Assembly: GCA_963750165.1 (NCBI GenBank)
Contig: CAVVPN010000003.1
Location: 1,696,001 to 1,760,000 of the forward strand
DNA: 64,000 nucleotides
Reading direction: 5' to 3'
Origin: an uncultured Gemmataceae bacterium
GTDB taxonomy: Bacteria; Planctomycetota; Planctomycetia; Gemmatales; Gemmataceae
A program made the translations under genes and the position numbers. The notes beneath the pieces are model-generated. The model made no database searches. It was not told where the DNA came from and saw only the letters and a list, made by a program, of their open reading frames with translations. Positions 50,390-63,934 of this stretch are shown here, one piece after another; position 1 is the stretch's first letter, and each line of letters begins with the position of its first letter.

Positions 50390-50776
50390 TCAGCGCCCGT
50401 ACCAGTAACTCGGGGCCTGGTAGTAATAGCCAACGGGCCGCACGCCGGAGGGCGGCGCGGTCGGCGGCGCGGCGAAAGCCGGCGGCGGGTATTGCGGCGC
50501 ATACGCGCTGCTGGCCTGGGGCGCCGGCCAGTTCGGGAACTGGAAGCCGGTGGGCGACGGCACCGTGAAGTAGGCGTCGTAGGGGAAGTAGGTGTACCAG
50601 GGCGGCAGGTACGGTCGCGGGCCGGGGTAGGTGAGGTTGATGTAAGCCTTGATCCCAGCATCTACCTTGAACGGCGGGCAGAAGGGCAGTTGCAGTGGCG
50701 CGCCGTCGGCCGACGCCCGGGTGGGCAGTGCCAGCAGCGGCAGCCCCACCAGGGCCAGCCAGACCAGTCGTTTCAT
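50390..50776 (-). CDS. Secreted Pro/Tyr-rich hypothetical protein
   Basis: MKRLVWLALVGLPLLALPTRASA signal peptide; GAGGA RBS; ends QAPSYWYGR. Confidence 0.8.
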   Translation of the reverse strand: MKRLVWLALVGLPLLALPTRASADGAPLQLPFCPPFKVDAGIKAYINLTYPGPRPYLPPWYTYFPYDAYFTVPSPTGFQFPNWPAPQASSAYAPQYPPPAFAAPPTAPPSGVRPVGYYYQAPSYWYGR

Positions 50777-51027
50777 GGGGGTCGTCCTCGGGGTTCGCAC
50801 GATAGGAGCGGGAAGGCCGCCGGCGACCGCTCCAACGGTGCCGGCGCGTTTTGGCACACTCCACCATTGCCCGAGGAAGCCGCGACGGCCAGGGAAAACG
50901 GCCGCCTTACCGCGTCGCGACGGCGCCGCCACCGTCTCAGACGGTAGTAGTCGCGCAACCGGCGCGCGCAAACGGGCGTCCCGGGCAGGAACCCGGGACG
51001 CCGTGCGAGGCTTACTGGTATTGTGGT

Positions 51028-51630
51028 TTAGTAACCGTACCAGTAAGAGGGAACCTGCTGCCCGCCATACGAGTAGCCGTAGCCCTGGTAGTAGCCATAG
51101 CCCTGGTTATAGTTATAACCCTGGTTGTAGTTGTAACCCTGGTTGTAGTTGTACGGGTTCTGCTGTTCGTAGTTCTGCGTTGGGGCGTAGTAGCTCTGAC
51201 CCTGGTACTGGTAGACGGCCGGTTGGTAGCTGGAGTTGCCGTACCACGACATCTTGGGTTCCTCCTTCTTGCCGTTCGCGGGCACCTGCTGCGGCACCGG
51301 CGGCATGAAGGTCGGGGCCACGGTTCCCGGCACCGCGGGCGGCGGGTAGGCGCCGGCGACGGGGTAGCCGCCAGCGACGGGGTAGCCGCCGCCGCCGACG
51401 GGAGGAGGGGTGACGGTCCAGGCGTTGGCGTGCCAGCCCTGGGCCACGTCGGTCGGGTAGCCGGGCACCTGGCCGCCGCGGAACATGCCATAGAACGAAC
51501 TGTTGTTGGCGCCCTCGTAGGTCCAGCCCAGGCCGATGAACAGACTGCTCTTCGACCAGGCCGACGCCTGTTGCTGCGCCAGCAGCGCCACGCACAGGGC
51601 CGCCGCGCCCACAATCATAAACTTCTTCAC
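51028..51630 (-). CDS. Secreted Gly/Tyr/Gln-rich low-complexity protein with YNQGY repeats
   Basis: GTG start with GAGAGGAG RBS; signal peptide ending QASA; 18-nt repeats; ends QVPSYWYGY. Confidence 0.82.
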   Translation of the reverse strand: MKKFMIVGAAALCVALLAQQQASAWSKSSLFIGLGWTYEGANNSSFYGMFRGGQVPGYPTDVAQGWHANAWTVTPPPVGGGGYPVAGGYPVAGAYPPPAVPGTVAPTFMPPVPQQVPANGKKEEPKMSWYGNSSYQPAVYQYQGQSYYAPTQNYEQQNPYNYNQGYNYNQGYNYNQGYGYYQGYGYSYGGQQVPSYWYGY

Positions 51631-51962
51631 GGTCAAACTCCTCTCAATTAGGTTCCCGATCCGGCGACTACTCGCGTGTTGGTGAGAACCATCGTCACCG
51701 GGTTGTCTAATCTTTCCCCATGACAAACCCTGAGGCCAGGCAAAGGTGTACGGATTGGCGAAAAGATTCGGGCCGCGCGACGTTTTCCGCCGCAGGTCGT
51801 GCCAGGCCGGTGAAAATCTCGTGTTTGGCTCAAGTGGCCGCTTGCGTGCGGAAGGCGCGGCTGGCGCGGCTGGCAGATTGGACGGCTTTGTCGGCGCGAC
51901 CCGGAGAAGTGCTGTTGACGCGGCGACCCGACAGGTTTGCGCAGCTGCGCAGGGTTCACAAA

Positions 51963-52874: not shown

Positions 52875-52902
52875 TTGACCGCGGTCGCTAACTGAGTATA
52901 GT
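52875..52902 (+). promoter_or_regulatory. Sigma70-type promoter
   Basis: TTGACC-N16-TATAGT with an AT-rich upstream element in a GC-rich background. Confidence 0.75.
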
Positions 52903-52907
52903 AGGAA

Positions 52908-53465
52908 GTGTTTTGGCAAGACTTCTCTCGCTGAGGCACCGTGCCTCACGTCCACCTTAATTCAGGTCGCCGCGGCGGTTGAACTCTCGTCTTCATCCCG
53001 ACCGGCGGCCGCATCACGGTGCGCCACGGACGTTTCGAGAGAAGGTTCCCAAACGCGAGCCTGCTTGCGCTCGGATCTCGGCTCATACGGTCTCAGGTGC
53101 CCGGCGTGTGTCGCCGTCAAGACCGGAATCTCCGGCGGACCCTGAGGATCCTAACGACGCTTTCCAACCCGAGCGCAAGTGACCGCGGGCTCTCTTACCA
53201 AGGAGGTGCACCGGTCGATACTCTAAACGAGAGGATTGGCGGAGCCCGTCGCTCGGTTGGATTTCGGCTGGGACGACCTTGAGGCGCTGTCCGGCGCCCG
53301 CGCTGGACCCCCCTCTGGTCCCTGGAGTCATTTGCCCGATCGCGACCCCATACGACGGGTTTCCGGCTGCGAAGATGTCCCCTCAAACTCTAGGGGAACG
53401 TCGAATTTGCATTTCCCACATGGGAACAGTAACCCGTTTTCCAGACGAAAACGGGTTGCTGTTTT
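52908..53465 (+). ncRNA. Candidate large structured non-coding RNA or long attenuating leader (~560 nt), family not recognised
   Basis: Bounded by promoter and terminator; no credible ORF; many nested helices (52922-30/53036-44, 52948-53/53028-33, 53063-74/53169-80, 53092-97/53141-46 and others). Confidence 0.62.
53425..53465 (+). terminator. Intrinsic terminator
   Basis: AACAGTAACCCGTTTT-CCAGACG-AAAACGGGTTGCTGTT then TT. Confidence 0.7.
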
Positions 53466-53478
53466 ATGAGACGCCCTT

Positions 53479-55703
53479 GTGAGCACTCCCCTACCGCTCG
53501 TGAACACCTCACACCGCCTCCGCAAAACTGTCGGCCTGCACCTCGGCGCCGCCACCGCCAGCATTGCGCTGCTCGACGCCACCGACAGCGCCCTCCGCTT
53601 CGGCCAGGACGACCAGGGCCGCCGCACGTTCCCGCTGACCGGCGACCCGGACTTGAAGCAGGTCGTGCAACAACTCCGCATCGCCCTGGCGCAGGTGCTC
53701 GACGACCGCCGCTACGTGCTGGACGCGGCCGTGTTGACCATGTCGGCGGCGCACGATCAGGACCGGCAAGCGCAGTTGAAACAACTCGTGCAGGAAGCCG
53801 GACTGGAAGTGGTCGCCACGATGCCCGAGCCCTTCACCACCCTGGTGTATTACCACTGGGCAAGCGGCCACGGGAACGCCCTGTATCTGGTTGCCTTCGT
53901 TGACCGCGGCCAGTGCAGCGCGACGGTCGCGGGCATTCTCCACGACGATCTTACGACCCCAATCGGATGGGAGAACTACAAGATTGAGGACGGTTCGGTG
54001 TCGGACCGTGTCGTCGACTGCTGCTGGCAAGCGCTGAACGACGTGAGCGTGTCGCCGGCCGCCATTGATTACGTTCTGCTGGCCGGGAGTTCCGACCAAC
54101 TGGCCGCGGTGGCCGCGGCGCTGCGGGCCGCCTTCTGCGACCCGGCGCTGCCGGAACACACCGTCCACCCCGAGCCGTTGGTACACGAGCCCGAGCTGTG
54201 CGCCACCGCCGGCGCGGCCATCCACGGCGCCCGCCTTGGCACCCACTACCTGCTCGGCGACAGCGGCGGCGCCACCGCGGACGTTCATCTGACCAGCCCG
54301 CCGAACACGCGCGTGACCGCCCACGAACTGACCGGCATCGTCAACGGTTCGCCGCCGCTACCGGCTGGCTCCTCGCTGCTGGTGCAGGCGCTGGCGACGG
54401 GCCTCGTGGAAGAAGCGTTTCTCGACGAACAGGGCGCCTTCCGCCAGGCGCTGGAGTTAACGCCCGACAGCGACAACGGTTTCCTGCTGACGCTGTGCGA
54501 CGACCTCGGCCGCGAGCTGGCGACGCTGCCGGCCACGGTCCGCCACAGCACGCAGGAGCGCCGCCTGGGCCAGACGGTTGCGGCCACCGAGGTGGTGACG
54601 CGGCCACTGCAAATTGAGGTGCTCGACCAGCGGCGGCGGCGCGTGCGGCAGACGCTGGCCCCGGTGGGCGCGACGCTGCCGAACACCTTCGCCTGCATCT
54701 GCCGCACCACCGACCAGGCCGGCCGCGTGGTCGTGCCGCTGTACGAGGACAACCGGTTGCTGCAGCGCGTGGTGGTCGGCGACCTGGACCCGACGCTGCC
54801 GGTCGGCGTACCGGTCGAACTTGAGTTGCAGGTGGACGCCGCCCATGCCCTGCGCCTCAAGGTGACCGTGCGCCACGCCGGCCGCATGGAAACCGTCACC
54901 CTGGCCGCGACGCCGCCGCCGAAACTGCCGACGAGCCAGGAAATCGACACCCTCCGCAAAGAAATCGAGACGGAGCTGACCCAGTTCACCGGCATCTTCC
55001 ACACGCGCAACCGCGAGCAGCTGACCCGCCTGCTCGGCGAGCTGGACGCAGCGCTGCAACGTCACGACGAGTCGGCGGCGCTGGAGCACGCCGCGGCACT
55101 GCGCGAGTTGCGTCAGGTGGTGCTGGGGGCGCGGTCGCAGGTGCTGGAGCCGCCCTGGCAGCGCTTCGCCCAGCTGGTCCGCCAGTGCCTGATTCAGGCG
55201 GGCAACGTCGCCGAGCGCACCGGCCGCTCACGCGAGGAACTGTTTGAACAGGTGTACGCCCAGGAACGCTACGCCGAGCAGGCGTACGCGGAGAAGAACC
55301 AGACGTTGTACCGCGAGTGCTTCGAGAACCTGAGCAAGTTCGCCGCGTACCTGGATCAGCTGGGCAACGACTTTTCACCCGGGGCGGCGGCGCGTGGGCG
55401 CGCAAGGTGCCGACGACGCTGGAGGTGCGCCGCGACGCCCGTCAGGTGACGCTGGAGTTGCAGGCACTGCTGCAGCGTGCGCAGGCGCAAGGACGGGCCG
55501 ATTTGAGCGAACAACTGGAGCAGATGTTGCGCATCGCGGCAAACGCGGACGACCGCGCCGCCCGCGACCCCGGCGGCGGCCAGCGCGACCTGGAACGGCT
55601 GCGCCAGGAGGCGGCACGGGTGGAGCAGGCGCTAACCGGCGTCCGGCTCAACACCCCGGATGACGACGAGGGAATGCTTGAAGGAACGGTTGAGGCGCGG
55701 TAG
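53479..55703 (+). CDS. Degenerate Hsp70-like protein; 1-bp frameshift at ~55372-55410
   Basis: VGLHLGAATASIA (phosphate-1 remnant), MPEPFTT, IDYVLLAGSS, PELCATAGAAI, SBD-like VVVPLYED...ELQVD; helical tail continues in ORF 55317..55703. Confidence 0.72.
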
Positions 55704-55723
55704 TTTGGGCTAGGGCGCCCCAT

Positions 55724-55776
55724 CAGCCCGAAGCGCAAGCGAGGGTTGCAGCAACCCTCGTTTGCGCTTCGGGCTG
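55724..55776. repeat. AGCCCGAAGCGCAAGCG-type REP palindrome
   Basis: CAGCCCGAAGCGCAAGCGAGGGTTGC / GCAACCCTCGTTTGCGCTTCGGGCTG. Confidence 0.8.
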
Positions 55777-55808
55777 GTAGGGGTGTCGAGTCTCGATAAG
55801 GGTCACCG

Positions 55809-58496
55809 ATGAATGTCGCGTCCATACTGCTCTACGCTGCCCTGGGCGGGGCCGTGGTCCTGCTCGTGGGGGCCGCGGTGGCGCTCTGGTTGATCTTCGG
55901 CGCCGGGCCGCAGCGCAGCCGGGGCTACCGGCGCGGTCAGCGGCTGCTGCGCGAGGGCAACTGGCACGAGGCATTGCAAACCGTCCACACCTATCAGGTG
56001 CCCGGTCTGTCGCCACTGTGGCAAGGTCGGCTGCGGTCGCTGGAGGGCGAGTGCTACCGGGCCGCCGGCATCGCCGCCGTCAAGGGTCAGGACTACGAAA
56101 AGGGCCTCGACTATCATCTGCACGCCGCCGAGCTGCTGGCGCTCAACTCGGTCGAGGCGCGCGGCACCGTCATCGAGTCCATGCTGAGCGAGGTCCGCCG
56201 CCGCTTCGCCGCCGGCGACACCTCCGCCGCGCAGGCACTGGTGTCGCGCACGCTCCTGCTGCAATCGCCGTGCGCCGAGGCGTCGTTCTGGCAGGGCCTG
56301 TGTCACCTGCACGCCGGCAACGTCGAGTTGGCCCAGGCGGCGCTGCTGACGGCGCGCGGCGAGACGCCGACCCTGCTGGACCCGTCGCTGTACCTGGGCG
56401 GCACACTGCTGAAAGCGGGCCAGGCCAAGGAATCGCTGCGCTACCTGACCGAGGCCAACCGGCTCGACAGCAACTGCCCGCTGGTGGCGCTGTCGCTGGG
56501 CACGGCCATCATCACCGCTGGCGGCGACGTGCAGATCGCCAACCGCGCCCTGCAAAAAGCGCTGGGGCCGCGCGGCCTGCTGCAATACGCGGCGGCGCCG
56601 CAGCGGCTGTGGGCGGAGGGTTTTCCCGAGGGCCGCTCCTACGTCCGCCGGCTAGCGCAGAAGTACCCATTCACCGACCCGGTCTGGGGCGGCGACGTGA
56701 CCCAGATCATCCGCGACGGCAACGCGGCGCTGGCGCAGGGCCTGTACCGTCAGGGCAACTTCCAGGATGCAGCAGACCTGTACGGCCGGCTGCTACAGGA
56801 ATCGGCACCGACGGCGCCGGTGCTGCGCGGCCTCGGCCTGGCGCTGACGCGGCTGGAGCGCTATGACCAGGCGTTCAAGCACTTGAAGGCCGCCTACGAG
56901 ATCGAGCAGGGCCGTGAACGCTGGACCGCCGGTTACCTGGCCCTGTGTGGAGCGAAGGGCAAGCCGAGCCGGCCGGAGGACAAGGAGCGCAACGTCGCCT
57001 GGGCGGTGCGCGTTGTCTGCGCCTTCCAGGCCCCCGGCGATACGGAGTGGGCGAACCTCATCAGCCAGATCTTCGCCGAGGCCCGGCAGTGTGGCGTGGC
57101 GCTGCCGGTGGAGGATCAGCTGTACCTGTGCGATCACCTGGCGTCGGTAAGTGCCATCGACCCGCTGGCGGCGGAGGCGTACCACTGGCTGGCGGTGACT
57201 CACCCCGAGGCGCTGCGGTCGCAGCACGCCTGGCTCTACAGCCGGGCGGCGCACCAGCACGGCGTCAGCGGCCCGCGCGCCGCCGACCTGTTCGCGCGCA
57301 CCTTCGCCGAGCAGGACGAGGCACGCGTCTTCTACCGTCAACTTGGCTGGGACTTCGACGACCTGGAGTACGCCTTCCTGGAGCGCGCGGCAGCGACGCA
57401 CCCGGGGCAGTTCCCGGCAGTGCTCGGGCTGGACTATCCGCCGCGCGGCGAACAGAGTTTGCTGGAGCGGTCGCAGAGGCAGGAGCAGGCCGGTCAGAAG
57501 GAGCAGGCGCTGGCGACCGCGGAGGTGCTGGTGCGGCTGGCGCCCGGCAGCGGCCGCGCTCACGACCGCGTGGCCCAGATGTACCACCGCCTCGGCAAGT
57601 CCGAGAGCGCCCTGGCTCACCTGCATCAGTGGCGGCTGCTGGAGGCCAGCAATCCGCTGCCGCCGCTGCGTCTGGCGATCCTGAGTCAGAACCTCGGCCA
57701 GCAGGACGCCGCTCAGCAGAATCTCCGCCGGGCGCTGGCGTTGACCGACGGCACCCGCCGGGCGGACCTGGCGCTGCTCGGTGCACGGCTGGCGCTGCTG
57801 GCGGCAAAGGACCAGCTCGCCGGCGCGGCGCCGGCCTTGCAGACGGCGCTGGAACTGCTCGACATCTGTCTTCACGAGGACGAGCAGAACCCGCAGGCGC
57901 TGTGGCTGCTGGCGGCGGTGAAGGCGGTGCTCGGCGACCGCGACGGGCTGGCGCAACTGGCGCCGCGGATGAAGCGGCAGGACGTGGACGACCCGCGCTT
58001 CCAGTTCCTGGCGGCGGTGTGTTTGCTGGCGGCTGGCGACTACCCGGCGGTGCTGGAGGCGTGCGGCCGGGCGGCCCAGGACGCGGCGCTGGCGGTGGAG
58101 TGCTCGTACCTGGTCGGCTGGGCGCAGCTGTTGCGGCACGAGATCGCCGCGGCGACGGAGGCGTTCCGCGTCGTCGCCCGGGTCAAGGACAGCGCCTCGG
58201 CGGCGCACGCGCAGGCGCTGCTCGGGGCCATCCGCTTCCACGAGGGCGGTTACGAGGAGGCGATTCACTGGTGGCAGAGCCTGGACGCGGAGCGGCGTGC
58301 CGACTGGAAGTTCGCGGAGCCGTTGCAGGCGACGGTGTGGCTGGCGGCGCTGAAGGCGCTGCAGTCGGGGCGGTACGAGAACGCAGCGGAGCGGCTGCGC
58401 GAGGCGGGCAAGCTCGGCTGGCGCGACCGCCGGCTGGGGCCATTACTGAGCTTCGCGCTGGTCAAGGCGGGGCAGCAGTTGTTGTACCGGAAATGA
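55809..58496 (+). CDS. Large TPR protein with N-terminal membrane anchor
   Basis: ILLYAALGGAVVLLVGAAVALWLIF followed by basic residues; many TPR-like units (e.g. LAQGLYRQGNFQDAADLY, LGLALTRLERYDQAFKHL). Confidence 0.85.
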   Translation: MNVASILLYAALGGAVVLLVGAAVALWLIFGAGPQRSRGYRRGQRLLREGNWHEALQTVHTYQVPGLSPLWQGRLRSLEGECYRAAGIAAVKGQDYEKGLDYHLHAAELLALNSVEARGTVIESMLSEVRRRFAAGDTSAAQALVSRTLLLQSPCAEASFWQGLCHLHAGNVELAQAALLTARGETPTLLDPSLYLGGTLLKAGQAKESLRYLTEANRLDSNCPLVALSLGTAIITAGGDVQIANRALQKALGPRGLLQYAAAPQRLWAEGFPEGRSYVRRLAQKYPFTDPVWGGDVTQIIRDGNAALAQGLYRQGNFQDAADLYGRLLQESAPTAPVLRGLGLALTRLERYDQAFKHLKAAYEIEQGRERWTAGYLALCGAKGKPSRPEDKERNVAWAVRVVCAFQAPGDTEWANLISQIFAEARQCGVALPVEDQLYLCDHLASVSAIDPLAAEAYHWLAVTHPEALRSQHAWLYSRAAHQHGVSGPRAADLFARTFAEQDEARVFYRQLGWDFDDLEYAFLERAAATHPGQFPAVLGLDYPPRGEQSLLERSQRQEQAGQKEQALATAEVLVRLAPGSGRAHDRVAQMYHRLGKSESALAHLHQWRLLEASNPLPPLRLAILSQNLGQQDAAQQNLRRALALTDGTRRADLALLGARLALLAAKDQLAGAAPALQTALELLDICLHEDEQNPQALWLLAAVKAVLGDRDGLAQLAPRMKRQDVDDPRFQFLAAVCLLAAGDYPAVLEACGRAAQDAALAVECSYLVGWAQLLRHEIAAATEAFRVVARVKDSASAAHAQALLGAIRFHEGGYEEAIHWWQSLDAERRADWKFAEPLQATVWLAALKALQSGRYENAAERLREAGKLGWRDRRLGPLLSFALVKAGQQLLYRK

Positions 58497-58909
58497 GAGG
58501 GCCAGGAGGGGGTCCGTGGGGCAAAAATCCGACGCAGACGGGTGGACAGGGGCGAAGCCCTGTTGCCCGGGTCGGTACCGCCCGACCCGGCACCACGGAA
58601 GTCGCTTTAGCCGACCTCCATCCTCTGCACGCGGTGCCCCGGCCGGAAAAACCGGCAAACCATATTCCGGATCTGGCAAAGACCATCAGGGCGAACGGCT
58701 ATGATGTAGGAAGGGCCATTCTCGCGGCCCGGATGCCGGACGGACGGTTGGTGCAACTGGGGGGACATCATCGTGCGGAGGCCAGGCGACAACTCGGCGA
58801 GACGATTGTCCCCACCCGGGTCGTGGATTGGACCGCTCTGTCCCCAAAGATTCAGGCCTGGTGGCGTCAGCGGTTCCCGAATTTTCCTTGGGGAGATTTC
58901 CTGACATGA
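58493..58909 (+). CDS. ParB/Srx N-terminal-like domain protein (138 aa)
   Basis: LAKTIRANGY...LVQLGGHHRAEARRQLG...VPTRVV; ATGA overlaps at both ends. Confidence 0.72.
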   Translation: MRGPGGGPWGKNPTQTGGQGRSPVARVGTARPGTTEVALADLHPLHAVPRPEKPANHIPDLAKTIRANGYDVGRAILAARMPDGRLVQLGGHHRAEARRQLGETIVPTRVVDWTALSPKIQAWWRQRFPNFPWGDFLT

Positions 58910-59235
58910 GTTCCGAGGCCCGACCCTGGTTCTCCGTCAGCCGGCCGGGGAGTTCCGTGTTGCGTTGCGCCGCGTGCCGCCAGGAGTTCGACCTCGGGGG
59001 GTCGGTCGCCGACCACCACCCAGCCGTGTGCCCGGTGTGTGGCGTCGAATGTATATTCGTTGACTGGAAGGATCGGATCGTTCAGGTCGTCACGGCCTCC
59101 GCCCCCGCACGGCTGCCCGAATTGATCCGCTGGCTGCAGAACAACTTCGACGAACTAGACTACGTGCAGTTGCTCTGTGCCCTGGAAGAACTAGCCGACG
59201 CCGTGGACTCCAGCCGCGAACCCCAGGTGCGATGA
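58906..59235 (+). CDS. Small Zn-ribbon protein (109 aa)
   Basis: CAAC...CPVC; acidic helical C-terminus; GGGAG RBS; ATGA overlaps at both ends. Confidence 0.72.
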   Translation: MSSEARPWFSVSRPGSSVLRCAACRQEFDLGGSVADHHPAVCPVCGVECIFVDWKDRIVQVVTASAPARLPELIRWLQNNFDELDYVQLLCALEELADAVDSSREPQVR

Positions 59236-60929
59236 AGGATACCGCGATGGCGATTCCCGAAGCGATTCCGATGGCGGCGCCCGCCGCGGCACCGCCGACC
59301 GCCCCCCGGGCCGAGCCCTGGGCCGACGCCGCGCGCCTGTTCGAACAGGCCCTCAAGACCGGACCTGCGGACCCACAGGTCGCGTACCTGCTCGCGCTGT
59401 GCTACAAGCGCCAGGGCAAGACCAACGACGCTCGCACTGCTCTGCGCAAGATCAGCAAGCCGGACGCCAACGTCCTCCTCCAGATGGGGCTGCTGTCCTT
59501 CCAGGAGAACAATTTCGCGCAGGCCGAGCAGGAATTCGCCCGCGCCCTGGAGATGGACCCGAACTCCTACGAGACCTGCTTCAATCTATTCCTGGCCCGG
59601 CTGTCGCTCGGCAAGATGGAACCCGTGCTGGCGCTGCTGCCCAAGCTCGGCGCCCTGGCCAGCGACCCCGACGAGCAGCGCTTCTTGCGCGTCACCGAGC
59701 CGCTGTTCCGCGACTGCATGAACCCGCGTTCCGGGCCGCCGCCGTTGCCCAAAAAGCAGGCCAACGGCGTCCTCGTCTATGACACGCTCATCCCGGAGAT
59801 GACTGCCGGCGATGAGGAGCGCTTCCTGCAGATCATCCGCAGCGTCAGCGACTTTGAGGTGATGTTCCCGCTGCTGCGCGGCCTGGCGACGGGCCGGCCG
59901 AACAGCCAGGCGGTGCAGGAGACGTTCCTGGAAGCGGTGCTGGTGCGCGGCAAACAGCTGGCCGACCACTGCGACTGGGACGAGGCCCGCCAGTTGCTGC
60001 AACCGCTGGCCCGGCTGCCGTTCGATCCCACCCGGGCGTCGCAGGAGGCGTGCGAGAACCACATCGCCATGCTCAACCTGCTCGGCTGTTGTGAGTGCAT
60101 GATGCAGGAGTTCGACGCCGGCATCCGCTACTTCCAGACCGCCCTGCGTATGGCCGGCAACGACGCCTGGCTGCACCAGAATTTGGCCCTGGCCTTCGAG
60201 TACCAGGGTCGCCTCGACCAGGCCGACACGCACTGGAACCGCTACTTCGATCTGCTCGACCGCAAGGTGCCGGTGCCGTCGCTGACCAATTACCTGGAGA
60301 CGCTGGCCTACGAGGGGCTGAACCGTTTGGCCGACACGTATCAGAAGAAGGAAAAGTGGAACAGCGCCCTGACATACCTGCAGCGCGCCCATCGGCTGCG
60401 GCCGGCGGACACCGAGACGCTGGAACGGCTGTTTCACCTGTATAATCAAGTGAAGCGGCCCGAGGACGCCCGGCGGACGCTGCGGCGGTTGCGCGAGATG
60501 CGGCCCAACGACCCGCAGTTCGAGTTGTACGAACTCGATTTGCGCGAGGTCAAGACGCTGGAAGACCTGGACCGCAAGCTGGCCGACATCCGCAAAACGC
60601 TGTCGCGCTATCCCAACGACGCCCGCGTTGAGGAGCGGGCCGTCAACATGGTCGGCGAGGTCATCCCGCTCATGGGCCGCCTGTGCGACCAGTTGACCGA
60701 CGAACTGAGCCGGGTCATCGACCAGGTGCGCAGCCTGCCGAACTACCAGATCAACTGGCCGGCGGTGCGCGACGTGATGCGCGACCTGCAGGAGCGCTTC
60801 CAGAAACTGCGGCGGATCACCAACAAATGCCTGGGACTGGTCACCAATGAGGAGCACCGCCGCATCATCCGCGACCTGAGCGACCACATTGACCGGAAGA
60901 TTGAGATGTGCCAGTCGATGGGGGCGTGA
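59232..60929 (+). CDS. TPR protein with C-terminal helical bundle
   Basis: TPR units (YLLALCYKRQGK, MGLLSFQENNFAQAEQEFARALEMDP, NLALAFEYQG). Confidence 0.88.
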   Translation: MKDTAMAIPEAIPMAAPAAAPPTAPRAEPWADAARLFEQALKTGPADPQVAYLLALCYKRQGKTNDARTALRKISKPDANVLLQMGLLSFQENNFAQAEQEFARALEMDPNSYETCFNLFLARLSLGKMEPVLALLPKLGALASDPDEQRFLRVTEPLFRDCMNPRSGPPPLPKKQANGVLVYDTLIPEMTAGDEERFLQIIRSVSDFEVMFPLLRGLATGRPNSQAVQETFLEAVLVRGKQLADHCDWDEARQLLQPLARLPFDPTRASQEACENHIAMLNLLGCCECMMQEFDAGIRYFQTALRMAGNDAWLHQNLALAFEYQGRLDQADTHWNRYFDLLDRKVPVPSLTNYLETLAYEGLNRLADTYQKKEKWNSALTYLQRAHRLRPADTETLERLFHLYNQVKRPEDARRTLRRLREMRPNDPQFELYELDLREVKTLEDLDRKLADIRKTLSRYPNDARVEERAVNMVGEVIPLMGRLCDQLTDELSRVIDQVRSLPNYQINWPAVRDVMRDLQERFQKLRRITNKCLGLVTNEEHRRIIRDLSDHIDRKIEMCQSMGA

Positions 60930-60975
60930 CCATAACTCCTCTCCCCCCTGAAGGGGCGAGGGGAGGAAGACGGAG

Positions 60976-61485
60976 ATGACCATGAGCAAGATTCCAACCG
61001 GGCCGGTGGTGCTGGAGCTGGCGCCGATGCCGCGCGAGCAGATCGGTCCGTTCCTGTTGCTTGGCCTGGACAAGACCGCGGACAAGACCGCCATCGACGC
61101 CAACTGGGCGCAGCGCATCAAGTGGGCCCGGCGCAATCAGCTCAAGGCACCGCTGGAGGACATCAACTGGGCGCGCGACATTGTCAGCGACCTGGACAAG
61201 CGCATCCGTGCGGACGCCGCCAGCTTCAACATTGACACCACCGAGGGCGTCCTGCGCCGCCTGTCCGAGCGCTATGAAAGCAGCCAGCACACGGCCACCT
61301 GCCGGCCGCTCGATGTCGAAAAGAACCTGGCCGACTATACTCCCCCTGCGGAACTGCCCGACCTCGCCGAGGCCCGCGCCGCCGTCATGGTGCCGGAGGT
61401 GCCGCAGGAGACGCCGGCGGTCGCGCACCTGCTGGAACAGTTTCTCCGCGAACCGCTGGACCCGTGGCAGGTCCACTTGTCCTGA
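60976..61485 (+). CDS. J-domain-like protein lacking the HPD motif
   Basis: PFLLLGLDKTADKTAI (helix I/II) and INWARDIVSDLDKR (helix III/IV) match the J-domain pattern; next to grpE and hsp70. Confidence 0.62.
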   Translation: MTMSKIPTGPVVLELAPMPREQIGPFLLLGLDKTADKTAIDANWAQRIKWARRNQLKAPLEDINWARDIVSDLDKRIRADAASFNIDTTEGVLRRLSERYESSQHTATCRPLDVEKNLADYTPPAELPDLAEARAAVMVPEVPQETPAVAHLLEQFLREPLDPWQVHLS

Positions 61486-61496
61486 GGAACGTCCGC

Positions 61497-62105
61497 ATGA
61501 ATGACGAATTGTTGCCGACCGCCCCGCGCTCCACCGCGCCTGCCGAAGAGGCCACGCTGGGCATGTCGGCGCTGTACAAATTGTTCGAGGCCTTCATCGC
61601 CCTGCGCGAGAAGAACGAACGCCAGCACAAGCTGTTTGAGCAGACGCTGACCAAGGCGCGCGACGCCATCCAGTCCAGCTTCAACAGCTTTGCCGCCGAC
61701 ACCCAGCGCGCCTACCAGCAGTTGCGCCAGGAGGTCCACGGCGAGAAGCGCGTCAGCGTTGCCCTGCTCAACGAATTGCTGGAACTGGGCTTCGACCTGG
61801 AGCACATCGTGGCGGCACGGCCGGTGCTGATGCTGACCGGCGCTGAGGCCGAGGCCATGAACCGCTGGGCGGACGGCATCGAGGTCGAGTGCCGCAAGGT
61901 GCAGGACGCCCTGCGCAAGCACGGCATCCTGCCGTACGACGCGGTGATCGGCGCGGTGTACGAGCCAGCCCTGCACGAGCGCGTCGGGGCCAAACGCGTC
62001 GAGGGCATGGACGCGCTGCGCGTCGCCGCACAGGTGCAGCACGGTTACGCCAGCAAGCAGCCAGAGTTCGTGCTGCGGCGGCCGAAAGTGATTGTGACGG
62101 AGTGA
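61497..62105 (+). CDS. grpE: GrpE-family nucleotide exchange factor
   Basis: N-terminal coiled coil; GAVYEPALHERV...QHGY...VLRRPKVIV. Confidence 0.85.
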   Translation: MNDELLPTAPRSTAPAEEATLGMSALYKLFEAFIALREKNERQHKLFEQTLTKARDAIQSSFNSFAADTQRAYQQLRQEVHGEKRVSVALLNELLELGFDLEHIVAARPVLMLTGAEAEAMNRWADGIEVECRKVQDALRKHGILPYDAVIGAVYEPALHERVGAKRVEGMDALRVAAQVQHGYASKQPEFVLRRPKVIVTE

Positions 62106-62123
62106 AATGAAGGTCTTTAGCCC

Positions 62124-62163
62124 GATTGATCGATTCGCGCTCGCCAGCGCGAATCGATCAATC
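62124..62163. other. Perfect 18-bp inverted repeat between grpE and hsp70
   Basis: GATTGATCGATTCGCGCT-CGCC-AGCGCGAATCGATCAATC. Confidence 0.85.
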
Positions 62164-62197
62164 AATGCAATAAAACTGGCACCCAGGATACCCCCCA

Positions 62198-63934
62198 ATG
62201 GCGTACATCGGCATCGATTTCGGCACCAGTAATTCCGTCGTGGCCAACTTCCAGTTCGGCCACGCGGAGGTCATCCCCAACAAGGAAGGGCACAAGTGGA
62301 CGCCCTCCGTCGTGACGCTGCGCCGCGACGGCAGCCTCGCGTTCGGTCAGGAGGCCAAGGAAAATTTCGACGAGCAGCGCTCCATCCGCAGCATCAAGCG
62401 CATCCTCGGCACGCCGGAGCGTGTGCCGCTGGTCGGCCAGAACCTGCGCACCGAGCAGATCGCCGTCATGCTCTTCAGCCTGCTCAAGCGCGACGCCGAG
62501 CAGCAGTTGAACGAAACCATTAGCAAGGCGGTCGTGACCATCCCGGCCAACTCGAAGGGCCTGGCCCGGCACGCGACCAAGCTCTGCGCCGGCGCCGCCG
62601 GCATGCAGGTACTCACGCTCATCAATGAGCCGACCGCCGCGGCCATCTGTTATGGCCTGAACGCGCAGGAAGATCAAACGGTCCTGGTCTACGACTTCGG
62701 CGGCGGCACCCTTGATGTGACGATCCTGCGCATCCACCACGGCCTGTTTGAAGAGATCAGCAGCAAGGGTATCGGCAAACTTGGCGGCGACGATCTCGAC
62801 CTGGCGCTGGCCAACGTCGTCGCCCGCCGCTTCCAGGACAAGACCGGCTATGACATCATGAACTCGCCGCACCGGCAGCAGTTCATGCTCGCGGTCGAGA
62901 AGGCGAAGATCGAACTGTCGAGCCAGCAGGCGACGGTGGTGCGCAAGGCCAGCTTGGTGCCGGAGCGCAATTTGAACCTCGAAGAGGAAATCGACCGCGC
63001 CACCTTCGAGCGCGAGATCATGCCGCTGGTGGTCAAGTCCGGCACCGCCATCGACGAGGCGCTGAAGTTGCGCGGCTTCCGACCCAAGGACATCGACAAG
63101 GTGCTGCTCGTCGGCGGCACCTCGAAAATCCCGCTCATCAAGCGGTTCGTCACCGAGCGCATGGCCGGCAAGGAGCCGGAGTCGTTCGAGAAGGTCGATC
63201 CGATGACCTGCGTCGCTCAGGGGGCGGCCATCGTCTCGGCCATTCTGCAGGGCGCCCCCGGCCTGGACAACCACGCTTACAGCGTCAAACTGGAGCACTC
63301 GCTGTGCGCCAATCCGATCAACGAACGCCGGCAGGTGTACCTCGACCCGATCGTCAAGCGCGGCAGCGACATCCCGTGCTCGTTCACCAAGACGTACCAT
63401 CCCGTGGCGGACCCGGCCGAGCGCGTGGTCATCTGCGTCTACGAGGGCGACCTGTACGACAACCCGGAGAGTCCGGAGAACGTCAAGTTGGCGGAGATTC
63501 CGTGGGAGTTCCAGCCGCCGCGGCCGCAGCGCGACGGTGCCCTGGAGGTCACGTTCGAGTACGGCGATGACGGCATTTTGACGGTGCAGATCACCGACCT
63601 GCACGCTGGCCACAAGAAGCGCTTCGCCATCCAGCAGAGCGGCCAGGATCAGATGGACGCGACGCAGATCATGAAGATGAAGCGCATCAACGAGGACCTG
63701 CTCAAGCGCGGCAACGAACTGGAGACCTCGCAGGAGTACCGCGACGCGCTGGAGGTGCTCAAAAAGACCGAGCAGGACGTGATCCCCAAGGTAGAGAGCC
63801 CCAGCGACAAACGCGAACTGGAGGAACTGTGCCGGCAGGTGCGCGAGGCGATGGGCGCCGGCGACAAGAAGCGCATGGAGGACGCCAGCGCCGCCCTGAA
63901 CGACCGCCTCCTGAATTACGCGTATTTGCTGTGA
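62198..63934 (+). CDS. Hsp70 family chaperone, non-housekeeping DnaK paralog
   Basis: IGIDFGTSNS, TPSVV, AVVTIPA, INEPTAAA, VYDFGGGTLDVT, LGGDDLD, VLLVGGTSKIP; atypical interdomain linker. Confidence 0.95.
   Translation: MAYIGIDFGTSNSVVANFQFGHAEVIPNKEGHKWTPSVVTLRRDGSLAFGQEAKENFDEQRSIRSIKRILGTPERVPLVGQNLRTEQIAVMLFSLLKRDAEQQLNETISKAVVTIPANSKGLARHATKLCAGAAGMQVLTLINEPTAAAICYGLNAQEDQTVLVYDFGGGTLDVTILRIHHGLFEEISSKGIGKLGGDDLDLALANVVARRFQDKTGYDIMNSPHRQQFMLAVEKAKIELSSQQATVVRKASLVPERNLNLEEEIDRATFEREIMPLVVKSGTAIDEALKLRGFRPKDIDKVLLVGGTSKIPLIKRFVTERMAGKEPESFEKVDPMTCVAQGAAIVSAILQGAPGLDNHAYSVKLEHSLCANPINERRQVYLDPIVKRGSDIPCSFTKTYHPVADPAERVVICVYEGDLYDNPESPENVKLAEIPWEFQPPRPQRDGALEVTFEYGDDGILTVQITDLHAGHKKRFAIQQSGQDQMDATQIMKMKRINEDLLKRGNELETSQEYRDALEVLKKTEQDVIPKVESPSDKRELEELCRQVREAMGAGDKKRMEDASAALNDRLLNYAYLL

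Follow-up and report, generated by a model that had tools for sequence, protein, structure and literature searches.

A modular structured RNA family of Gemmataceae bacteria with a Shine-Dalgarno linker ahead of a conserved stem-loop domain

A structured RNA encoded just ahead of an Hsp70/TPR operon in an uncultured Gemmataceae bacterium proved to be non-coding, folded and conserved within one branch of the Planctomycetes. The RNA very probably represents a real and previously undescribed family. Its homologues are modular, and in many of them a strong Shine-Dalgarno (SD) sequence is followed at start-codon spacing by AUC or GUC in place of AUG. Judging from this arrangement, we propose, with a probability of about 0.4, that the RNA may dock on the 30S ribosomal subunit through its SD, the AUC/GUC triplet avoiding productive initiation. 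The analysis started from a 64,000-nt stretch of genomic DNA (the window), in which a sequence-only reading had described the RNA as either a new large non-coding RNA or a long attenuator of the locus that follows. The features are listed in Table 1.

Table 1. Coordinates of the RNA and of the neighbouring operon in the window.
Feature	Position	Strand	Basis or detail
Sigma70-type promoter	52875..52902	+	-35 TTGACC, 16 nt, -10 TATAGT; predicted transcription start near 52908
Module A, multi-stem 5' domain	52908..53056	+	invariant core GCGGCG ... CCCGA(A/C)C
Module B, first copy (B1), divergent	53057..53192	+	core at 53073; by eye and alignment
Perfect SD, AAGGAGGUG	53200..53208	+	complementary to the genome's own 16S 3' end; conserved in linkers
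Near-cognate GUC, then GAW-ACN-C(C/U)A motif	53214..53225	+	7 nt after the SD
Module B, second copy (B2), upper half divergent	53241..53364	+	core GGAUUUCGGC at 53259
Variable 3' hairpins	53374..53426	+	predicted fold; sequence not common to G012
Terminator-like 18-bp hairpin, short U tail	53424..53465	+	predicted fold, helix p 0.93 (hairpin 53424-53464)
Neighbouring chaperone operon, outside the RNA	53479..63934	+	ORFs and homology
Operon ORF starts	Hsp70-like 53479, TPR 55809, small ORF 58828, TPR 59232, J-like 60976, GrpE 61464, Hsp70 62198	+	

The promoter, helices and terminator proposed by the sequence-only reading were all recovered in place by promoter scoring and fold prediction. The promoter scored 10/12, the highest of the nine sites scoring at least 9 in the 64 kb, and is indeed the clearest sigma70 match in the window. 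Over its 561 nt, the RNA has a predicted minimum free energy of -251.1 kcal/mol (z -5.4), and 0/100 shuffled sequences were as stable. Every helix fell where it had been placed, with predicted pair probabilities that were mostly high: 0.67 for P1 (52908/53056), 0.97 for 52922/53044, 0.93 for 52948/53033, 0.65-0.88 in the core (52969-53009), 1.0 for 53065/53178 and 0.85 for 53091/53147. The ORF list and a fold check left no credible ORF in the ~560 nt, as had been claimed, and the Hsp70-like ORF does begin, with GTG, 14 nt past the terminator. The closing stem was confirmed by fold prediction. It was absent from the listing of the terminator scan, probably because its U tail is short, and the same hairpin ends the homologues in G012 and G149. 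One suggestion failed. Two complementary 8-mers (at 52936 and 53015), read as a possible kissing loop or pseudoknot, cannot kiss because they lie mostly within hairpin stems whose loops have 3 and 4 nt. Forcing them to pair costs 6.4 kcal/mol, and they lie outside the conserved columns of the homologues. What had been called domain 2 and the 3' part proved to be two divergent copies of one module, and the modular repeat with its SD/near-cognate-codon linker had been overlooked.

BLAST gave short matches in 5/60 relatives, and reading these revealed the modular RNA. A covariance model of module B, built from 8 copies with the window left out, matched 19/151 genomes of the order Gemmatales. A broader model matched 20 of the 151, namely the genome of origin, 18/135 in the family and 1/15 in the sister family, and 0/150 genomes from other Planctomycetota families held the RNA. 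Several well-sampled genera also gave no match (0/21, 0/14, 0/10 and 0/9). The only match among the 15 sister-family genomes searched (L042, G042:C15:23587-23703) is a divergent member with a promoter. A pattern scan of GTDB returned 30 loci, 24 of which score with the model; 23 of these 24 are titled Gemmataceae, Gemmatales or Planctomycetota/Planctomycetaceae. The last is in an 'Alcaligenaceae' bin that is likely misbinned, its copy nesting with a family member on the tree. The other six of the 30, all non-Planctomycete, were set aside as chance, since they lie within coding DNA and fail the model. The same pattern found 107 metagenome stretches and had 0 matches in the viral DNA of IMG/VR. 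There is one locus in the genome of origin, where a loose pattern search gave only noise, and one or two in the relatives searched. Given the low copy number and the IMG/VR result, a phage-borne or repeat-type element was rejected.

Loci of the family follow the order promoter, 5' domain A, one to three copies of B and terminator, in the architectures AB, A-B-linker-B, B-linker-B and linker-B, with one three-B record. Upstream promoters with a score of 9/12 or higher were found at 64/86 homologous loci, compared to 4/64 control windows. By eye, the usual 3' end of a locus is a U tract after B or a separate long hairpin, and many copies have their own terminator ahead of unrelated or convergent genes. 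One subgroup (L069, L082, L083, L100, L108, L113, L131, L136, L138 and L140) shares a ~100-nt 3' domain after B2; a tRNA gene follows in L069 and L082. In another case, a short linker-B copy (L036, G013:C86) sits, by eye, directly past the end of a grpE-like gene.

Both modules covary. Module B is an irregular stem-loop of ~125 nt. An alignment of 120 copies was fitted to the model, and many of its rows had been retrieved with a core-fixing pattern; in it, 89.5% of cells are paired and two-sided change is seen in 29/33 pairs, while 0/500 shuffles match this and slid controls pair at 33-58%. In a structure-blind alignment of 8 rows, two-sided change was seen in 11/33 pairs. For module A, 33 MAFFT-aligned copies have 92.3% of cells paired, and 18/25 pairs change on both sides. 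Every strong A match in the 151 genomes is immediately upstream of a B. Three weak matches in G063 and G088 were discarded; these lie within coding-like DNA without a B. Three copies of a 30-nt stretch that weakly resembles the end of module A (E 0.1; G000:C3:2807194, 2807977 and 2818270, L004-L006) are probably an unrelated repeat. In the genus g72, a variant 5' domain with a pyrimidine-rich loop substitutes for the canonical A (L220, L222, L223, L227, L035, L037, L039 and L051). Copies from this genus precede an Hsp70-like gene, and the A of the window has a similar loop.

The window copy, in the order A-B1-linker-B2-hairpins-terminator, is a divergent member of the family. Its module A does not have the GGAAGUGA junction motif that is common in other copies; a model of A built without the window matches 52914-53078 with 34.2 bits (E 4.7e-8). 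Both of its B copies are divergent. The window-free B model matches the second at 53239-53366 with 39.7 bits (E 4.8e-7). The first keeps the 5' core, is branched at the top and is missing the usual 3' core. Its 5' part was found by a window-free profile HMM (E 4e-5), and its covariance-model score of 15.2 bits (E 0.17) is not significant.

The sequence-only reading had seen no hallmark of RNase P, tmRNA, SRP, 6S, T-box, cobalamin riboswitch or group II domain V, and the Rfam searches agreed. None of the 4227 models of Rfam 15 matched the window at the gathering threshold. By E-value, the window and six homologous loci gave only weak lncRNA/miRNA noise, and ten further loci gave only two flanking tRNAs. 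6S RNA (RF00013) was rejected; the 6S of this genome is elsewhere, on C12, and the window RNA is multi-domain and not a single rod. tmRNA was also rejected, as ARAGORN found none in the window and the tmRNA of the genome is on C11. 5S is also elsewhere in the genome. ARAGORN gave 98 tRNA lines for the genome (G000), including two tRNA-SeC calls and a tRNA-Ile with a TAT anticodon. The full-text literature searched, which leaves most subscription papers and some supplements outside its scope, held no description of the RNA. The main text of PMC11109978 has no Planctomycete terms, and the passages of PMC7159879 consulted deal with other Hsp70/GrpE-linked systems and have no RNA term. Rhodopirellula-1 (PMC2864571) is likewise a structured Planctomycete RNA motif, with another consensus and a simple fold, and is unrelated by eye. 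The covarying homologues, the conserved promoter, the lack of an Rfam match and RNA-library contigs of close relatives support the claim of a new large non-coding RNA.

These contigs come from soil metatranscriptomes. In 4/4 runs from 4 studies, contigs of relatives cover 52920-53366 and barely cover the flanks. Their summed depth was tens to thousands over the RNA versus 0-11 on the flanking genes, but the contigs are from other organisms, were retrieved via this stretch and are without strand or DNA control, so the coverage is a hint of transcription and not a measure. Some of the contigs align over 150-300 nt with about 10-27 letters differing. Another 20 RNA runs, which have small word shares, were left out of this comparison. 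Three records of the metagenome collection (L083, L100 and L136) contain only two different copies joined tail to tail, each beginning inside module A without a promoter. Such records would be expected if a discrete RNA had been assembled, but their library type is not stated.

The linker was examined next to the 3' end of the 16S rRNA. Before the last or only B, it typically consists of AAGGAGG, 6-7 nt, a triplet and GAW-ACN-CCA. An SD-like site pairing with the 16S tail at -8.4 kcal/mol or stronger was found 50-67 nt before a B core in 117/123 loci, many of them close kin and many retrieved with a pattern in which the B core is fixed. Strong SD-like sites are missing from at least L013 and L134, and the window's own B1 has no strong site upstream (-5.4). 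Since an SD was part of the definition of a linker, the strength of linker SDs is circular. First-B copies, which were not selected for one, have an SD peak at the same distance in 42% of 72, compared to 0-4% in most other sequence windows. SDs this strong are rare at the gene starts of the genome: with a rough gene set, AAGGAGG precedes 1.1% of 2863 first ATGs, and an SD of -13 or stronger precedes 0.7% of 1500 sampled starts. The predicted accessibility of the SD is low, at only ~35% unpaired. Pairing beyond the SD reached -21.1, a modest gain over shuffled sequences (-18.1 +/- 3.2) and 89 SD+ATG sites (-18.8 +/- 3.8).

Of 96 linkers, 88 could be anchored on the downstream motif only and 8 could not. 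The triplet in the anchored linkers was GUC in 55, AUC in 28, AUG in 1, GUA in 1 and something else in 3, which places GUC or AUC at the start-codon position in 83/88; in 75/88 the triplet follows the SD by 6-7 nt. On a tree built free of the triplet, AUC and GUC exchange and AUC needs about 8 changes, with bootstrap values that are not fully settled. In one lineage the triplet is AUG, with the D-T-P-P frame unchanged. Most variation within codons 2 and 3 affects the third base. At codon 4, the third-base A is kept in 66/79 while the amino acid varies and, therefore, the constraint is at the nucleotide level. No conserved peptide was found, as the encoded peptides would have 7-50 residues, fall in all three frames relative to B and lose conservation after codon 5. 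In the window, the frame from GUC runs for 22 codons to the TGA at 53280-53282, and conservation also stops after codon 5. A small-protein or type I toxin mRNA was rejected because there is no conserved ORF with a canonical start and peptide.

In copies that begin with module A, GGA(A/G)GUGA is often present at this same distance upstream of B. Therefore, the linker may derive from the 3' strand of A. Support for this homology from a profile test was weak (24% above the 95th percentile), and the equivalent triplet in the A strand is mostly CUC or CCC. Several other roles for the linker were tried and rejected. Extended antisense pairing into 16S helix 45 was only ~3 kcal/mol past shuffles, and antisense pairing of the codon region to 16S gave no gain (-15.2 versus -15.1 shuffled). 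An anticodon mimic of the dicistrovirus IGR-IRES type was not supported by covariation between the B loop and the triplet. The loop of B, which equals a tRNA-Ile anticodon loop in which GAU would read AUC, has GAU at its centre in 50/61 first copies versus 33/86 linker-preceded copies, and the AUG loci retain GAU. Brief resemblances to 5S loop C (CCGAAC) and the 16S 3' end (CGGUUGGAU) were noted and count as no more than leads.

In the proposed mechanism, the SD would pair with the 16S tail, docking a 30S subunit on the RNA in the cell, and the near-cognate triplet would occupy the P site. With AUC or GUC in place of AUG, the subunit could be held without productive initiation, and IF3 would reject the triplet. 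IF3 discriminates against non-canonical starts such as the AUU of infC. A distance of ~25-30 nt downstream is beyond the initiation footprint, and B, which begins there, would be just past the mRNA entry channel, stay folded and contact the subunit or a partner protein. In this way, 30S subunits might be stored, tuned or checked for quality, possibly in connection with the adjacent Hsp70/TPR system. Where SD-B units occur in tandem, the RNA would have several docking sites, and the 3' strand of module A, with its purine motif at the same distance from B, may gate the first. Docking is favoured by the spacing of the SD-like sites, the first-B peak, the rarity of such SDs in the genome, the triplet spacing, IF3 genes with apparent ATT starts and the RNA contigs. 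Against it are the nucleotide-level constraint at codon 4, the variable frame and peptide past codon 5, the modest extended pairing and the loci without a strong site. Alternatively, the linker motif could bind a protein, have a structural role or be left over from the module A 3' strand. An extended form of the docking proposal, in which the RNA would load 30S subunits onto tandem decoy initiation sites (perfect SD plus AUC/GUC), display a conserved domain at the mRNA entry channel and hand stalled or faulty ones to Hsp70/TPR/GrpE as a kind of RNA-guided ribosome triage, seems quite unlikely. The genome has three IF3 genes (G000:C11:227615, 1092484 and 1531243; L287-L289), of which two are near-identical paralogues that, by eye, appear to begin at ATT behind an SD.

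Compared to known systems, the RNA would seem to work most like SprF1 or STAB-SD and to be built like OLE, with a family match to none. SprF1 of Staphylococcus aureus binds ribosomes by a purine-rich stretch and lowers initiation (PMC8938821), and is the closest working analogy. However, SprF1 belongs to the type I antitoxins and has an antisense target, and here neither a toxin gene nor an antisense partner was seen and there is no family match. The STAB-SD of the Bacillus thuringiensis cry3A mRNA is similar in having a perfect SD, here predicted to pair with the 16S 3' end, without a canonical start; AUG was present in 1/88 anchored linkers. It is a short mRNA-leader element acting against RNase J, whereas the SD here is repeated within a non-coding RNA, with constant spacing to a conserved domain. 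infC AUU-type starts also combine a strong SD with a start codon that is wrong at the third base, but they head real proteins, while no peptide is conserved here. OLE resembles this RNA in being several hundred nt long, with its own transcription unit, a covarying multi-domain fold, a narrow range and partial gene linkage. Unlike in OLE, the number of modules varies here (AB, ABB, BB, B), a near-cognate codon follows the SD and no internal anti-SD partner could be established as conserved. Other large orphan bacterial non-coding RNAs are ROOL, GOLLD and the raiA motif. OLE itself carries an SD-related element, and its SD and anti-SD pair internally as a bS21 site (PMC12054373).

The neighbouring operon has two Hsp70-family genes, GrpE, a J-like gene and two TPR genes, and is confined to part of the Gemmataceae. 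The first gene has no Pfam match and was called Hsp70-like from longer orthologues. It looks degenerate (53479-55703; 656 aa versus ~950 in the orthologues, with ~135 residues missing internally), and a 128-aa ORF at 55317-55703 may be its out-of-frame C-terminus. The J-like protein has no evident HPD motif; the DnaJ annotation on 45% of a neighbouring Atlas cluster (score 0.89) is a lead only. Apart from one weak TPR match, PADLOC reported no defence system in the operon. Elsewhere in the window, two neighbouring minus-strand ORFs (51028-51726 and 50390-50971) encode predicted secreted proteins with a high Tyr, Pro and Gly content; YNYNQG repeats occur in one, and both end in PSYWYG(Y/R).

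Linkage of the RNA to this Hsp70 locus held only in part. An operon gene lies directly downstream in 16 of the 70 loci with enough flank and is not there in the other 54. Adjacency was found in 11/29 loci with module A versus 5/41 without a recognised A, and those 5 have, by eye, a variant 5' domain. The neighbour is either the Hsp70-like gene or the first TPR gene, and the RNA stays with either one where the operon is split, which one ancestral gene order would explain. The TPR gene is present in 32/151 genomes. It occurs in 17/20 RNA-bearing genomes versus 15/131 others, and B is found somewhere in 20/30 genomes with the Hsp70-like gene, counts that ignore kinship. The RNA was absent from 15/20 fetched upstream regions of the Hsp70-like gene (20 of 35 matching genomes) and from 20/20 of the TPR gene (20 of 32, mostly where adjacency was not already known). 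We conclude that the RNA is not a required leader but a gene of its own, with a linkage to the operon that is old and has been retained in part.

The adjacency, the persistence of the RNA beside the Hsp70-like or TPR gene in split operons and the co-occurrence would also be expected of an OLE-like RNP scaffold, in which A and B bind the Hsp70, TPR, J-like or GrpE proteins and the SD is accessory. OLE is a precedent in that it binds bS21 via an SD/anti-SD mimic (PMC12054373). However, the co-occurrence ignores kinship while the RNA and the operon are both confined to one family branch, 3/20 RNA genomes have no TPR match with this query, 15 TPR genomes have no RNA match and the near-cognate triplet is left unexplained. 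We consider a scaffold rather unlikely. Another explanation, which appears quite improbable, is that B is the functional RNA, as a protein sponge or ligand, and that the SD stabilises it or sets its processing, as in the STAB-SD of cry3A. B is the only module common to all loci, with one to three copies in each, although loci were found through B, and STAB-SD binds the 16S 3' end without initiating (PMC4113751). STAB-SD blocks RNase J, however, and the RNase J C-terminal domain was not found in this 93%-complete genome. STAB-SD needs no codon-like motif at start spacing, and the contigs have no common 5' end at the SD, though contigs cannot show ends.

The attenuator suggested by the sequence-only reading, a cis-acting leader of the Hsp70/TPR operon, draws weak support from the operon genes that follow 16/70 loci. 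No second promoter was seen between the RNA and the operon and, therefore, the operon would depend on read-through; this may be the case where the RNA precedes it. Operons without the RNA often have, by eye, a promoter-like site directly before the gene. Since adjacency is limited and most of the checked operons are without the RNA, it is probably not an attenuator. Convergent genes or a tRNA follow several loci, many copies have their own terminators and no conserved antiterminator was seen. A riboswitch/attenuator leader was rejected in general, as the RNA has no consistent position 5' of related genes and its other neighbours are unrelated or convergent. Overall, a cis-acting role is very unlikely. 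Least probable is an initiation-fidelity sensor, in which low IF3 or faulty 30S subunits would allow translation of the AUC/GUC mini-ORF into B, unfolding B or freeing its 5' strand from the linker: 22/79 mini-ORFs do end after 12 codons (TAG/TAA) at the foot of B, and the linker can pair with the 5' strand of an incomplete B with at least 4 pairs in 51% of 85, but with the whole B such pairs form in only 12%, no switch output was identified and the linker pairs no better with its own B than with that of another locus (-11.5 versus -11.8), so there is no covariation and the linker/B 5'-strand switch was rejected.

This RNA offers a testable handle in a very strong SD that systematically lacks an AUG behind it and keeps a constant spacing to a conserved domain, in an organism that seldom uses such SDs. 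The natural variants (AB, ABB, BB, B and one AUG lineage) already dissect the modules. Large structured bacterial non-coding RNA classes are few, and their biochemistry is mostly unknown. Binding to the 30S subunit would make this RNA a novel means of tuning or storing ribosomes, and a scaffold role for the Hsp70/TPR proteins would link a non-coding RNA to a dedicated bacterial chaperone machine. With relatives present in soil metatranscriptomes, the RNA may matter in an abundant, little-studied group of bacteria.
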